Below are positions 4,094-25,900 of a DNA stretch of 64,000 bases, one piece after another. A program made the position numbers and the translations under genes. Source of the stretch: Nitrososphaerota archaeon. Its GTDB lineage: Archaea; Thermoproteota; Nitrososphaeria; Nitrososphaerales; Nitrosopumilaceae. Every line of letters starts with the position of its first letter. Position 1 is the first letter of the stretch. Under the pieces are notes generated by a model that saw nothing but the letters and a program-made list of their open reading frames with translations, was not told the DNA's origin and searched no databases. Location: contig DAHUYT010000004.1 of the NCBI GenBank assembly GCA_027315065.1, forward strand, positions 803 to 64,802, read 5' to 3'.

Positions 4094-5512
4094 GTGTTGC
4101 TGGAAGATTTTGCAGATAAAGCGGTTCAACTTGCGCTCCAAAATGGAATACAATACTGTGATGTTAGAGCGGAAACTATTGAGAGTAATGGTTTTTTGCT
4201 TGAAGATGGGCAGATAGAACATTTTTCATCTAAATTTGAGGCTGGGCTGGGAATACGTATACTTGCAGACGGTGCATGGGGGTTCTATTCTATATCTAAT
4301 CCAAAATCTATAGATGAATTAAAAGATGGTGTAATCAGTGCAATAAAATGTGCGCTTTACTATGCTCAAACAAAGAAAAAAAAAGTAAAGATGGCAGAAA
4401 CTCATGTATGTGTGGATACCGTAGATTATGGCATGATTGAAACACCAACAGTAGATGAAATGACAAAACTGGCGCTTGAATGTGATGGAATAATTCGAGT
4501 GAGAAAGAGAATAAAAAAATCGTCAATTCACATGCATCATGATGTATTTGACAAGTATTTTGTAAATAGCGAAGGTGCAAAAATAACTCAGCGACATAAT
4601 GATACTATATCTCATCTGTCTGTCACTGCTCATGAATCAGGTCTTTCAGAAACCGTAAGTACAACCGAGGGAGGTCGTGGAGGCATGGAAATGATAACAA
4701 AGGAAGATAACATATTGAAAAAAGCCTATTCAATCTCTGAAAAGGCAGATAAACTAATAGATGCAAAACCTGCAAAAGAAGAGAAGACAACCGTCGTGAT
4801 GAATCCTGATTTTGTTGCGCTGTTAACACATGAAATTTTGGGACATCCTTCTGAAGCTGATCGAGTACTAGGAAAAGAAATGGCTTGGGCAGGCGGTGCA
4901 TGGTGGTCTGGAAAGATTGGAACAAAAATAGGCTCAACTGAGCTTAATGTAATTGATGATCCTATGATGCAATCTAGTCTGGGATGGTACAAGTACGATG
5001 ATGAAGGTGTGATTGCATCTAGGAAATCGCTTGTAAAAGATGGTGTTCTCGTTGGTCATATGCAGAGCAGGGAAACTGCCTCTCTTTTTGACGCTGAACC
5101 CAATTCCGCAATGCGTGCTGCAGGATATTCGTTTATGCCACTAATACGAATGGCATGTACTTGTATCTGTCCTGGAGATTGGGATCCAGACGAGTTGATA
5201 AAAGATGTAAAGTCTGGTTATCTGATCTGCGACATGAAGGTACCATCTATTGACATGATGCGATATAACTGGAATATTTCATGCCAGTATGCTCAAAAAA
5301 TTGAGAATGGGGAATGTAAAGAGTTGTTAAGGGATGTTATTGTGATGGGGAATGCACCAGAATTCTTCAACTCTATTGATGCAAGAGGTAAATATCTTAC
5401 TGTACGACCGATAACAAATTGTGGTAAAGGCGATCCAATGCAAATAATGAGAATGGGAAACGGGGGACCTCATATTCGTGGAATCGCTACGGTTAAGAGT
5501 GTGGGGACCTAA
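4094..5512 (+). CDS. tldD: TldD/PmbA family metalloprotease (TldD type)
   Basis: GLGIRIL..GAWGF, HEILGHPSEADR zinc motif, C-terminal CGKGDP..MGNGGPH. Confidence 0.88.
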   Translation: MLLEDFADKAVQLALQNGIQYCDVRAETIESNGFLLEDGQIEHFSSKFEAGLGIRILADGAWGFYSISNPKSIDELKDGVISAIKCALYYAQTKKKKVKMAETHVCVDTVDYGMIETPTVDEMTKLALECDGIIRVRKRIKKSSIHMHHDVFDKYFVNSEGAKITQRHNDTISHLSVTAHESGLSETVSTTEGGRGGMEMITKEDNILKKAYSISEKADKLIDAKPAKEEKTTVVMNPDFVALLTHEILGHPSEADRVLGKEMAWAGGAWWSGKIGTKIGSTELNVIDDPMMQSSLGWYKYDDEGVIASRKSLVKDGVLVGHMQSRETASLFDAEPNSAMRAAGYSFMPLIRMACTCICPGDWDPDELIKDVKSGYLICDMKVPSIDMMRYNWNISCQYAQKIENGECKELLRDVIVMGNAPEFFNSIDARGKYLTVRPITNCGKGDPMQIMRMGNGGPHIRGIATVKSVGT

Positions 5513-5513
5513 A

Positions 5514-6095
5514 ATGTCTGATGAGATTGATGCACTGAGAAAAACTATCATTTCATGCACTATCTGCGAATTATCTAAATCAAGAACAAATGCAGTGCCA
5601 GGTTCTGGTAGTATTAAAACCAAAGTAGTATTTATCGGTGAAGCTCCGGGTAGAACCGAAGATCTTCAAGGTGCACCATTTGTAGGTACTGCGGGTAAGA
5701 TACTTTCAGATGCATTGGCATATGCGGGATTCACGCGTGACGATGTTTATATTACAAATATTGTAAAATGCCGGCCGCCTGATAACAGGAGACCAAATAA
5801 ACAAGAAATGAATTCATGTAGAAATTATATGCAAAAAGAACTTGAGATCATTCAACCTAAGATTGTTTGTATATTGGGGAATACTGCTTTTGGTTCATTG
5901 TTAAATGGAAACGCAATAACTAAGAATCGGGGAAAAATAATTAAAAGAAATGGTCAACTATACTTTGTTACAGTACATCCGGCAGCTATCATATATAATC
6001 AGGATCTGCGTCAAGTCTTAAAAGATGACTTAAAGGCGTTATCTGATATTATTGACAAGCTACAAAAGGGAATTCCTGTGGAAACTAATGAATGA
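5514..6095 (+). CDS. udg: Family-4 uracil-DNA glycosylase (4Fe-4S)
   Basis: CxxC..L, GEAPG, KCRPP.NR.P, HPAA. ATG at 5514 (1 nt after the tldD stop) preferred over the track start at 5478. Confidence 0.92.
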   Translation: MSDEIDALRKTIISCTICELSKSRTNAVPGSGSIKTKVVFIGEAPGRTEDLQGAPFVGTAGKILSDALAYAGFTRDDVYITNIVKCRPPDNRRPNKQEMNSCRNYMQKELEIIQPKIVCILGNTAFGSLLNGNAITKNRGKIIKRNGQLYFVTVHPAAIIYNQDLRQVLKDDLKALSDIIDKLQKGIPVETNE

Positions 6096-22631: not shown

Positions 22632-24035
22632 ATGTCAGCCGGAGAAAGGATCATAGAAATAACTGGCGAGTCGCCATTTAAGCTCACCTCGGGAGTATTT
22701 GAAGTTCAAATTTCTATCTGCGACTATCCACCTTCGCAAGAAGACATAAAACGAAGGACCTTTCCAGTTATCTGGAAAGATAATTTTCATCTAAGGGTGA
22801 AAGATGCAAAATTCACCCAGATTATAGGTTCTTTAAAAAATCCAATTCCTGATTTTGTATTTACACGAGATTCAGTTTGGGTCGTTATTCTTGATCAGTT
22901 CTCTTCAATTAATTCTGCTTTTCAAGTTACTGTGCCAAAGATTCTAGGTGAAATCCCTGCCACTCCTCCAAGAGAAGAATCACCAAGGGACCGCAAAACG
23001 CCTTCAGAATATTATCCTACATCAGGTACTCAGGGACCCCGTGGTCCTCAGGGTCTACCTGGAGTTCAAGGACCCTCTGGTCCACCAGGTCCTCAGGGTC
23101 CATCCGGCACGCAAGGAATCCAAGGTCCTCCAGGTGATAAGGGATCTCCTGGTCCACAAGGTCCTCCTGGTGATAAAGGTCCCCCAGGTCCTCCAGGTGA
23201 TAAGGGCGACAAGGGTGACAAAGGTCCAACTGGTGATAAAGGTATAACGGGAGATAAGGGTCCATCCGGAGATAAAGGTCCACGAGGAGACAAGGGAGAA
23301 GTTGGTGACAAGGGAGACAAGGGAGACAAGGGCGATAAGGGAGAAAAAGGCCTTACAGGCGAATCTGGTCCTATGGGAGATAAAGGCGTAACTGGTCTAC
23401 CTGGCCCACTTGGAGATAAAGGAATCCTTGGCCCTCCAGGTGATAAAGGACCACGAGGTCCATCTGGTCCTCTAGGTGATAAAGGACTTCCTGGTCCTCA
23501 GGGTCCTCTAGGTGATAAAGGTCTTACAGGTCCTCAGGGTCCTCTAGGTGATAAAGGTCCACAAGGTCCACAAGGTTCACCGGGGGAAAAAGGCCTAACT
23601 GGTATTCCTGGCCCTCAAGGTGAGAAAGGATCTAGAGGTTTACCCGGTCCATCTGGTGATCAAGGACCTAGAGGTCCGCCCGGTACTCAAGGTCCACCAG
23701 GCCCACAAGGAATTCAAGGTCCTCAAGGTGATAAAGGTCCACTGGGTCCACAAGGTCAATCTGGTGATAAAGGCCCACAAGGAATTCAAGGTCCTCAAGG
23801 TGACAAAGGGGTAACTGGTCCTTCCGGTATGGCTGGTGATAAAGGCCCGCAGGGACCTCAGGGTACGATGGGTGATGTAGGTCCACGTGGTCCACCAGGC
23901 CCGCCAGGTCCACCAGGTCAACCTGGATTTTCAGAACAACAAAAGCAAATAATCACTCAACTTATTGAAATATTAGCTTCAAAGAATATAATTACAACAG
24001 AACAACAGATCAAGTTACTAAGTTTTCTCTACTAG
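22632..24035 (+). CDS. Collagen-like protein (globular N-domain, 101 Gly-X-Y triplets, helical C-terminus)
   Basis: Uninterrupted Gly-X-Y from nt 23025 to 23933. Confidence 0.93.
23025..23933 (+). repeat. Gly-X-Y coding repeat with internal exact duplications
   Basis: 909 nt = 101 triplets. Exact 30-nt repeat at 23493 and 23529 (36 nt apart); exact 32-nt repeat at 23700 and 23772 (72 nt apart). Confidence 0.92.
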
Positions 24036-24344
24036 TGTATTCCTGCACAAACTATGTAATGGTGTCATAAAAGAAGCCGAAATTAAAATAAAGCATGTAA
24101 AAATTTCCATATGTGTTCTGCTTAGGCTGTGATATTGCAAAGATGAATTTGTTTTGTATTGATTATATCTAACAAAGTGTCTAATGTTGAGCATGTGTAG
24201 CGGAAACGGTTGCACATTTGATAATAAAAAATAATTCCTATGCTTGCATCAATCTGTACTTTATCTGTGTTGTACAATATAAAAAATATACTGAGTTAAA
24301 ATATTGAAATTATCGCCTGATGTCAAGCGATAATTTTTTTGATT

Positions 24345-24482
24345 TTATCTTCTGCGTTTCTTTGCAGATTTTCTTTTAGCTGGTCTTTTAGCTTTTTTAC
24401 CCGCTGTTCTTTTAGCTGCTGTTCTTCTCTTCGGAGCTGTTCTTCTTTTAGCAGCTTTTTTAGCGTGTCTTTTCATTGCCAT
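24345..24482 (-). CDS. 45-aa Lys/Arg/Ala-rich basic peptide (histone H1/protamine-like), below the ORF-track cutoff
   Basis: Manual translation MAMKRHAKKAAKRRTAPKRRTAAKRTAGKKAKRPAKRKSAKKRRR*; ATG at 24482, TAA at 24347-24345. Confidence 0.75.
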   Translation of the reverse strand: MAMKRHAKKAAKRRTAPKRRTAAKRTAGKKAKRPAKRKSAKKRRR

Positions 24483-24799
24483 TGACAAGTTTTACATTTT
24501 ACTTGTTTTTCTATCGGTACGCTTAAGAAAGTTACACCAAATGATGATATTGTATAAACAAATTTTTCATAAAATTCTAAAATTTTGATCGTGTTTTAGT
24601 AAAGCCAACTCGATGATGTTGTTTTCCTTCTAGTTTGAGATCTGTCTACATCATATGTCCTGTCTTATTATCTTTTTTGCAATTCTGAATCTTTTACATG
24701 GAAACCATATCTAGCTTCATTTTTGAAATCCGTGTCTTACACTCTATAATCTTCTATCTCTTTTTCATGAAATCAAAAGACTTTGCTGACTCGATGTTG

Positions 24800-25900
24800 C
24801 TATTTGCTTTTTACTATTGTAAGCACATCTTCATCTTCTAATATGTGGCTCAAACCCGTTCTTTGTCCTCCAAACTTGACGCTTTTTCCCCATACTAGTG
24901 CATATCTAAAATCTTTTTTCAAATCTCGGTGTAACTTGTTACACACATCTAAAACAGTAGAACTGCGTCTGACAATAAGCGGCTCTTTGTAATCTGTCTC
25001 ACCGCCCTTTGGTCTCATGTAAATTCTAATAAAATCTAGATATTCATAAATCGCGTCTCTGAGTGCCATTATGTTAATATCTGCATCAGCTGATATGGGA
25101 ATGATTTTTGATTTTATCTTTTCTTGTAATTCATTTAAGAATCCTTGGTTTACCAAGTCTATTTTATTCATCACGGTAAGAGACTCAACATAGAACTTGT
25201 TACCTGATACATAATCAATTAATTGTTCGGAATCTATGTCTTCTCTTATCAAGACACGTGCATTATTTATTCCGTATACTCGCAAGATATCTTTGAGTAG
25301 ATTTAACGGCATTTTTGTTATTGGTACCTGCTGGCTTACCGCTATTCCGCCATCGCCTGTTTTTTCTATAACAATGTCCGGAGGCTTTTGGTCTAGTCGG
25401 ATTCCTATATTGCCAAGCTCGGTTCTAATTACGTCCTCGTGGTATGGTTGGAATACATCTAATATAATTAACACTAAATCTGCACTTTTTGCTACTGACA
25501 GAACCCTTTTGCCAAGTCCCTTTCCTGTAGATGCTCCCTTTATTATTCCAGGCAAGTCCAGAACTTGAATCCTAGCACCGCGATATTCCATCATACCTGG
25601 AACTACTGTTGTAGTTGTAAATTGAAATGCGCCTACAGCTGACTTTGCGCCAGTAAGCCTGTTAAGTAAAGTCGATTTTCCAACGCTTGGGAGCCCGATG
25701 AACACAACAGTTGCATCTCCTGTTCTTTTTACATCGAAACCCACTGAACTACCTGAGCCCCTTGATTTTACATCTTCTTGCTCTCTTTTCAATTTGGCAA
25801 GCTTTGCCTTTAGCAAGCCTATGTGGTGTTCAGTGGCCTTGTTGATCTGAGTCTTGGCCATTTCGTCCTTTATGGCCTGGATCTTCTCTGGTATTCCCAT
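24800..25900 (-). CDS. DRG/OBG-family GTPase with TGS domain
   Basis: NKATEHHIGLLKAKLAKL, GLPSVGKS, FTT, DLPG, NKID. Confidence 0.93.
   Translation of the reverse strand: MGIPEKIQAIKDEMAKTQINKATEHHIGLLKAKLAKLKREQEDVKSRGSGSSVGFDVKRTGDATVVFIGLPSVGKSTLLNRLTGAKSAVGAFQFTTTTVVPGMMEYRGARIQVLDLPGIIKGASTGKGLGKRVLSVAKSADLVLIILDVFQPYHEDVIRTELGNIGIRLDQKPPDIVIEKTGDGGIAVSQQVPITKMPLNLLKDILRVYGINNARVLIREDIDSEQLIDYVSGNKFYVESLTVMNKIDLVNQGFLNELQEKIKSKIIPISADADINIMALRDAIYEYLDFIRIYMRPKGGETDYKEPLIVRRSSTVLDVCNKLHRDLKKDFRYALVWGKSVKFGGQRTGLSHILEDEDVLTIVKSK

Follow-up and report, generated by a model that had tools for sequence, protein, structure and literature searches.

Prokaryotic proteins that are poor in acidic residues, rich in lysine, arginine and alanine, of low complexity and built of short tandem units are known from the chlamydial Hc1 and Hc2 and from Pseudomonas AlgP. 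In proteins of the Hc2/AlgP type the number of units varies between strains, and the proteins bind and condense DNA electrostatically. Here we describe a gene for a peptide of similar make-up from a 64,000-nucleotide (nt) stretch of a Nitrososphaerota archaeon of the family Nitrosopumilaceae (assembly GCA_027315065.1, contig DAHUYT010000004.1, positions 803 to 64,802; this whole stretch is called the window below), in which a 45-codon open reading frame (ORF) occupies positions 24345-24482. The family to which the peptide belongs, found in ammonia-oxidising archaea (AOA), shares the composition and the tandem-unit build of Hc1, Hc2 and AlgP and may, like them, bind DNA, but it is archaeal, shorter (21-107 residues), has arginine about as frequent as lysine and conserved termini, and shows no detectable homology to them. 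Protamines (about 30-65 residues) and the C-terminal tail of histone H1 are comparable in size, in a basic content of around 50% or more, in disorder and in presumed bulk neutralisation of charge. The AOA peptide differs from both in lacking the globular H1 domain and cysteine, and in the unit S/T-A-P-K-K/R instead of S/T-P-K/R-K/R; the protamine criterion of sperm-specific expression is not applicable to an archaeon, and the AOA peptide is not stage-restricted as far as is known.

Two further comparisons come from ribosomes and from archaeal nucleoids. The ribosomal proteins eL41, bS22 and bTHX are likewise tiny and almost purely lysine and arginine, and the AOA gene also adjoins the gene of a ribosome-associated GTPase; in contrast to them, the AOA peptide is variable in length and repeat number and matches neither their sequences nor a chain in a ribosome structure. 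Very small polybasic ribosomal proteins are routinely missed by gene callers (PMC3353972). In Methanomassiliicoccus luminyensis, WP_019177984.1 is a lysine-rich candidate nucleoid protein of 74 residues with an isoelectric point (pI) of 9.6 (Hocher et al. 2022, PMC7613761), and like the AOA peptide it is a small, basic, lineage-specific archaeal candidate outside the known nucleoid families. The M. luminyensis protein is abundant, annotated and detectable by shotgun proteomics, whereas the AOA peptide is far more basic, repetitive and invisible after trypsin digestion, and a database-wide profile search was negative.

The ORF in the window is part of a compact stand-alone gene, composed of a promoter-like block, the ORF itself and a terminator of hairpin plus T-tract, which is present in at least three genera of Nitrosopumilaceae and is transcribed. 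That the 45 codons form a real, expressed gene is, in our estimate, highly probable. The parts of the gene and its upstream neighbour are as follows.

24345..24482, minus strand: coding sequence (CDS) of the 45-residue polycationic peptide, with ATG at 24482 and TAA at 24345-24347
24505..24540, minus strand: conserved upstream block, TTGGTGTAACTTTCTTAAGCGTACCGATAGAAAAAC, a putative TATA-like promoter element, possibly of a leaderless mRNA
24308..24335, no strand assigned: hairpin of 13 bp right after the stop codon (AATTATCGCTTG-ACAT-CAGGCGATAATT)
24295..24307, minus strand: T-rich tract past the hairpin (TCAATATTTTAAC on the minus strand), a presumed transcription stop
24800..25900, minus strand: gene of a DRG/Rbg-type Obg-like GTPase with MMR_HSR1, MMR_HSR1_Xtn and TGS domains, the upstream neighbour

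The ORF shares the minus strand with the GTPase gene and lies about 315 nt downstream of it. Translated up to its TAA stop, it reads MAMKRHAKKAAKRRTAPKRRTAAKRTAGKKAKRPAKRKSAKKRRR. The product has 13 lysines, 11 arginines and 11 alanines, no aspartate or glutamate, no aromatic residue and no cysteine, with a calculated pI of 12.0, a mass of 5.2 kDa and about 24 positive charges. An earlier note, made from the letters of this DNA, had counted 24 lysines and arginines among 45 residues, 11 alanines and no acidic residue, all of which our translation reproduces; its coordinates also hold, and the strand, which it did not state, is minus. Tandem Repeats Finder detects repeats with periods of 15 and 18 nt, both in frame and equivalent to units of 5-6 residues. 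The ORF is the sole strongly basic ATG-initiated ORF within the 64 kb, and 0 of 200 second-order Markov simulations of the window yielded an ATG ORF of at least 40 residues with at least 50% lysine plus arginine. As many as 26 of its 45 codons are one substitution away from aspartate or glutamate, and 23 of 45 are one substitution away from a stop. The overlapping ORF on the plus strand (24339-24485) was rejected as a gene, as the ATG that gives most of its length occurs in only 2 of 70 loci.

Conservation was assessed by retrieving 80 syntenic loci through the GTPase, on contigs taken at one genome per species from Nitrosotalea, Nitrosotenuis, Nitrosopumilus and other Nitrosopumilaceae. An ORF rich in lysine and arginine lies on the strand of the GTPase, some 330 nt past its stop codon, at 73 of the 80 loci. 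Three of the seven loci without it are on contigs that end too early (L006, L022, L064), and one (L003, 5426-5600) carries a 1-nt deletion within the ORF that we suspect to be a sequencing error. The basic ORF is not found at the DRG locus in the other three (L065, L068, L076), which belong to a Nitrosopumilus-like group with 73-74% GTPase identity; these loci (about 5100-5900) retain the GTPase gene and a zinc-ribbon gene, and in L065 and L076 a convergent collagen-like gene abuts instead. Counting the window, 74 copies were available, representing 70 unique sequences of 21-96 residues and a pooled total of 3,683 residues.

The pooled residues consist of 27% arginine, 24% lysine, 22% alanine, 10% serine and 5.5% proline, with a single aspartate and no glutamate, aromatic residue or cysteine, and the content of lysine plus arginine ranges from 45 to 62% across the family. 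Proline is wholly missing in twelve copies. All 74 copies start with ATG-GCN (Met-Ala), the conserved N-terminal pattern being M-A-T/M-K-R/K, nearly all have at least two arginines before a TAA or TAG stop, most of them ending in K/S-R-R-R, and the middle is made of units of the type S/T-A-P-K-R-R. Acidic residues and stops are nearly absent even though about half of the codons are one step away from them, which indicates purifying selection on both charge and frame. Length evolves through tandem duplication; the repeat periods found are 15, 18, 27, 33, 69 and 81 nt, all multiples of three, and one variant seen in a metatranscriptome carries a 15-nt in-frame insertion. Between genera the sequence turns over while the amino-acid composition is held.

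In front of the ORF stands the 36-nt block at 24505..24540, with the consensus TTRGTGTAAYTTTNTTWAG-N4-MCNATAGAAA. Its ATAGAAA core is invariant; in the window it lies at 24508-24514 and ends 25 nt before the ATG, and the distance is 24-25 nt at 69 of the 74 loci while the sequence of the spacer varies. The block is unique in the window, where 0 chance matches are expected, and occurs exactly once at each matching related locus. Across genera this block is the most conserved element of the locus, exceeding the peptide sequence itself. RNAalifold predicts no consensus base pairs in it, so its conservation lies at the level of sequence, and a structured RNA leader was rejected on the same result. 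A fixed distance between motif and ATG with a free spacer is the pattern expected of a TATA-like box in front of an archaeal mRNA that has little or no leader, and we therefore infer from the sequence that the block is a TATA-like promoter element, possibly belonging to a leaderless mRNA. The stretch that precedes ATAGAAA (TTRGTGTAATTTT.TTWAG) is a possible binding site of a dedicated regulator.

Metagenome contigs scanned with the upstream motif provided an independent test. Among the 120 contigs that matched, 117 have an ORF rich in lysine and arginine that starts 16-25 nt after the motif; for 112 contigs the distance is 24-25 nt. Among complete copies there are 86 unique sequences of 24-107 residues, and the C-terminus of the GTPase is encoded upstream of the block in 96 of the 97 contigs with enough sequence.

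One alternative is that the locus specifies a non-coding RNA and that its frame is open only because the repeats are rich in purines. Openness is weak evidence, since 73 of 74 copies are open in antisense frame –1 and 50 of 74 in sense frame +1; with the antisense frame open almost everywhere, openness by itself cannot identify the coding strand. Between the window and its closest relatives, nucleotide identity is 92-96% in the peptide ORF and about 94% in 109 nt of non-coding sequence upstream, in both cases above the 87-89% of the neighbouring GTPase CDS, which speaks for a real gene and can also be read in favour of a non-coding RNA. A non-coding RNA would nevertheless leave much without explanation: the ATG-GCN start is invariant and the arginine-rich end with its stop nearly so, the ATG is fixed at 24-25 nt from the motif, repeat periods and indels are all multiples of three, codons for acidic residues and stops are almost absent, and composition persists through the turnover of sequence between genera. 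Rfam, in addition, gives no match, and the upstream region shows no conserved RNA structure. We regard this alternative as highly improbable. Start and stop codons, frame-preserving indels, selection by residue class and transcription all agree with a protein-coding gene.

Downstream of the stop codon, the hairpin is predicted at 72 of 72 loci tested, with a mean folding free energy of –14.6 kcal/mol and a mean z-score of –4.25 against shuffled sequences. The stem is kept while its sequence differs by genus, being ATTATCGC... in Nitrosotalea and CGTCAAT... in Nitrosotenuis and Nitrosopumilus. A run of at least four T follows the hairpin at 46 of 72 loci, and metatranscriptome contigs that cover the orthologue of Candidatus Nitrosotalea devanaterra stop 10-25 nt beyond the equivalent T-tract. 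The T-rich sequence which the earlier note placed after the ORF is indeed there, beyond the 13-bp hairpin.

Transcription was followed through the N. devanaterra orthologue (L036, ORF 5427-5645) in soil and rhizosphere metatranscriptomes, as the window itself derives from a mine-drainage metagenome and no RNA run carries its sequence, nor is there a usable run for a Nitrosopumilus locus. The RNA data are unstranded, assembled Logan contigs, which give presence and not strand or the exact 5′ end. One library (X1) holds a 426-nt contig that spans the N. devanaterra gene (5290-5715, one mismatch). In two others (X2, X3), contigs at a depth of 11-14 cover 5444-5718 while the depth over the GTPase gene is 0, and further pieces of the gene occur in X10, X14 and X16. 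In X2, X3 and X14 the peptide gene is the only covered region of the 9.1-kb N. devanaterra locus. In all, coverage of the peptide-gene region in RNA libraries clearly exceeds that of its neighbours. The earlier note had held that its proposal would fail if the ORF were not transcribed and had no syntenic basic counterpart in related genomes. Both outcomes favour it: the orthologue is present in several independent metatranscriptomes, and the counterpart exists in 73 of 80 genomes and 117 of 120 metagenome contigs.

The position of the gene raises another explanation, namely a functional tie to the DRG GTPase in which the mRNA would be a polybasic, stall-prone template that depends on or reports DRG activity, the peptide being secondary. 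Rbg/Drg GTPases promote translation through poly-arginine and poly-lysine stalls (bioRxiv 10.64898/2026.05.13.724932, 10.1101/2020.07.06.190082), and the GTPase gene is directly upstream in the 96 of 97 metagenome contigs mentioned above. Such a tie sits poorly with the transcript contigs, most of which stop short of the GTPase gene, and with the peptide gene's own conserved promoter-like block and terminator. The linkage may be merely inherited, since the local gene order is common to all Nitrosopumilaceae loci examined; selection against acidic residues and for the termini indicates that the product matters; and, the next gene being convergent, no gene downstream is left for regulation. We give this explanation very little probability. 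A leader-peptide reading was rejected for want of a co-oriented downstream gene. As an observation on the locus, the most polybasic ORF of the window sits directly behind an archaeal Rbg/Drg homologue, and this position makes it a natural test substrate, in archaea, for the reported help that this GTPase gives ribosomes on poly-lysine and poly-arginine tracts.

The earlier note had described the ORF as uncalled, and this is confirmed. A collection of 15 billion proteins contains none of ten orthologue sequences looked up as exact matches, among them the ones of three RefSeq genomes and of N. devanaterra. A word-index search of 5.8 billion clusters and an exhaustive HMMER search of 1.84 billion representatives matched only two entries (P0002 and P0067), both frameshifted or truncated copies of the family; the tail added by the frameshift, which is not of low complexity, appears to be why gene callers accepted them. 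Pfam, NCBIfam and Rfam return nothing for the window peptide, 32 orthologues scanned against Pfam fall into no family (best E 0.35-0.49, to unrelated domains of unknown function), and the PDB contains no chain matching the peptide sequence or the family profile. No account of an AOA protein that is small and basic, resembles protamine or is rich in arginine came up in a full-text search of the literature. The further suggestion that both gene callers and tryptic proteomics would overlook the peptide is supported as well, in that the longest tryptic fragment is at most 5 residues in 73 of 74 copies. With fragments this short, and with the sequence not in the search database, the peptide is invisible in published proteomics of Nitrosopumilus maritimus.

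Comparison with described families gave a consistently negative outcome. The window peptide and 32 orthologues have no match at E<=1 to the linker histone family H1/H5 (Pfam Linker_histone), and 45 residues leave no room for the globular winged-helix domain of H1. For chlamydial Hc2 (Pfam HC2, PF07382) the best score is 12.3 bits (E 0.19) against a gathering threshold of 40, from one valine-rich orthologue, and there were 0 matches among the 32 orthologues scanned. Binders of the SPKK type (S/T-P-K/R-K/R), as in sea-urchin H1 and H2B, are not resembled in motif, which occurs twice in the 70 peptides as compared with 134 occurrences of S/T-A-P-K-K/R. Protamines P1 and P2 are set apart by the lack of any Pfam match, by lysine being about as frequent as arginine and by the absence of cysteine. 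eL41 (Pfam Ribosomal_L41), which has a fixed length of about 25 residues, and other small ribosomal proteins gave no match at E<=1 and no PDB chain, with S26e reaching a sub-threshold 13.9 bits against 27 for one valine-rich variant. The earlier note's label of a peptide like H1 or protamine thus holds for the basic, acid-free composition and fails for membership of the H1 or Hc families, there being neither a Pfam match at threshold nor a globular domain. The roles that the note suggested, nucleoid condensation or binding of RNA or polyphosphate, are read from composition, by which DNA is not separated from RNA or other polyanions. In our classification the peptide represents a family that is new and unannotated but belongs to a general kind already known, that of polycationic, low-complexity nucleic-acid binders, with its function deduced by analogy.

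On this basis the peptide probably works as a nucleic-acid-binding polycation. Its size, its 45-62% of lysine plus arginine and its lack of a fold fit binders of that kind; a single-sequence AlphaFold2 model (pLDDT 71, two short helices) is uninformative, as expected for such a peptide. Conservation is limited to charge, small side chains and the termini, and a molecule of this sort is bound to associate with polyanions. The mechanism we propose is that the peptide would stay in the cytoplasm, because neither a signal sequence nor a hydrophobic segment is found in it, and would act there as an intrinsically disordered polycation on polyanionic nucleic acid, through bulk electrostatics and not a folded domain, neutralising the phosphate charge of the nucleic acid to which it is bound. 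Its main target would be the AT-rich chromosome, to be compacted and shielded in the manner of protamines, H1 tails and Hc2, with rRNA or ribosomes as the second choice. DNA or the nucleoid as the main target is a tentative assignment, to which we lend somewhat less than even confidence, and it is reasoned from analogy. DNA is favoured because repeat-number polymorphism with held composition resembles the evolution of Hc2 and AlgP, and because the gene is dispensable at the DRG locus in some lineages. Integral ribosomal proteins, by comparison, are not known to evolve by repeat-number polymorphism and normally keep both length and sequence. Additionally, with histone at <0.06% of N. maritimus protein in published proteomics (PMC7613761), there would be room for a DNA counter-ion that has gone unseen. 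The assignment to nucleoid polycations is thus inferred by analogy from composition, from apparent high representation in transcripts and from the low level of known nucleoid proteins in N. maritimus (PMC7613761). Taken whole, the statement that a real gene encodes a nucleic-acid-binding polycation acting mostly on DNA has, in our view, a little less than an even chance of being right.

In its strongest form this proposal would have Nitrosopumilaceae rely on the peptide as their main chromatin protein and DNA counter-ion, protamine-like and replacing histone-based packaging in these mesophiles. We consider it distinctly unlikely; if true, it would explain the near-absence of known nucleoid proteins from the N. 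maritimus proteome, and the peptide would have escaped notice through its missing annotation and its tryptic fragments of at most 5 residues.

Several points weigh against the statement taken whole. The argument for the function is one of composition and analogy, and homology to any nucleoid protein was not found in searches of Pfam, the PDB and profiles. The minor-groove SPKK motif is essentially absent (2 in 3,683 residues), and the replacement of the S-A-P-K-R-R type by a proline-free, valine-rich and helical variant in some lineages (as in Candidatus N. bavarica, L045) implies that conservation does not extend to any specific DNA-binding motif. Its absence from the locus in L065, L068 and L076 shows that the gene is not universally essential. 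Transcript support consists of unstranded contigs from metatranscriptomes of a relative and not of this genome, and it is the pattern of the sequence that points to translation of the ORF. Lastly, the invariant linkage to a ribosome-associated DRG GTPase points as much to translation as to chromatin.

That linkage leads to the possibility of a lineage-specific mini-protein associated with the ribosome or rRNA, an analogue of eL41, bS22 or bTHX that would fill an rRNA groove or aid assembly. The peptide is very basic and of small size, transcription of its gene is apparently strong in comparison with the genes around it, the gene always adjoins that of the ribosome-binding GTPase, and the shortest variants, at 21-25 residues, have the size of eL41. 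Known occurrences of L41e fall in Euryarchaeota and Nanoarchaeota and outside the TACK archaea (PMC3353972), so a polybasic slot could be vacant. A ribosomal component would, however, have to tolerate lengths of 21-107 residues brought about by repeat expansion, with only the composition of the middle conserved, and an absence of the gene from the locus in three lineages; moreover, neither Ribosomal_L41 nor any other ribosomal Pfam family is matched at threshold, and ribosome structures in the PDB have no similar chain. We therefore think a ribosomal role unlikely, while crediting it with more weight than the other alternatives.

Composition alone would also allow a cytoplasmic polycation that binds some other polyanion, such as acidic lipid or polyphosphate, or else a peptide that is exported and acts on membranes in an antimicrobial or cell-penetrating way, and the variants rich in valine and arginine (L045, L119, L188) resemble amphipathic cationic helices. 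The common proline-containing variants are not amphipathic, though, and the missing signal peptide and hydrophobic segment speak against export. No export, immunity or polyphosphate gene was seen among the neighbouring ORFs, and the gene is housekeeping-like, vertically inherited and held in a conserved chromosomal slot. Such a role seems improbable to us.

The valine-rich variant deserves separate description. In some lineages a proline-free sequence rich in valine, alanine, arginine and lysine, 46-107 residues long (e.g. MAKLVRRAAKRKAVKRAVVRK...), stands in place of the S-A-P-K-R-R type. It is carried by L027, L040, L043, L045, L046 and L052 among the syntenic loci and by L082, L095, L102, L119, L159, L175, L188 and others among the metagenome contigs. 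It shares the promoter block, the start and the RRR end with the rest of the family, is predicted to be helical and not turn-rich, and could behave differently.

Few microbes of oceans and acid soils outnumber the ammonia-oxidising Nitrosopumilaceae. The gene described here is conserved and transcribed in them and is missing from every protein database searched, though AOA genomes have been annotated many times. It exposes a blind spot shared by gene callers, in the case of short low-complexity ORFs, and by bottom-up proteomics. The upstream motif with an ATG 24-25 nt behind it gives a handle for finding further copies. If the peptide does coat DNA or RNA, it would be a component missing from accounts of archaeal chromatin and a rare prokaryotic example of a stand-alone polycation of protamine size.

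The remaining features around the gene are listed below.

24549..24568, minus strand: A-rich tract and TTTATACAAT, a possible second, less conserved B recognition element (BRE)/TATA-like element, or the place where the upstream transcription unit ends
22632-24035, plus strand: collagen-repeat gene, convergent with the peptide ORF
24596-24768, minus strand: remnant of a decayed zinc-ribbon gene (MEKEVEHRWCKKC...YKCVQCGQISWLQGRRPSAESVY)

In the alignment, the first of these elements reads AAAAAAT(T/C)GT(T/G)(T/G)A(T/C)A and keeps a fixed position in all genera. A C/D-box reading of an ATCATCA element was rejected, being without a D box and without an Rfam match. On both strands T-runs border the hairpin behind the peptide gene (with TTTTTTT at 24336-24342 of the plus strand). 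The hairpin may act as a bidirectional terminator, shared with the collagen-repeat gene, whose end at 24035 is about 300 nt distant.

Between the GTPase and the peptide gene, most relatives have an intact zinc-ribbon gene of 57-58 residues that is labelled 'hypothetical protein', and all named hits of its product are from Nitrosopumilaceae or Thaumarchaeota. The remnant in the window has stops and frameshifts in every frame and 74-78% nucleotide identity, as compared with 88-96% for its flanks. This decayed form recurs in L155 and in mine-drainage data of independent origin (X23). By a pattern test, 41 of 97 metagenome contigs have a zinc-ribbon gene without four intact cysteines; inspection by eye confirmed the decay for nine contigs and for the N. 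bavarica locus (L045). Decay in so many contigs suggests that the zinc-ribbon gene has been lost repeatedly. An obligate operon pairing of the two genes was rejected, as the zinc-ribbon gene decays in the window and in many contigs while the peptide gene persists.

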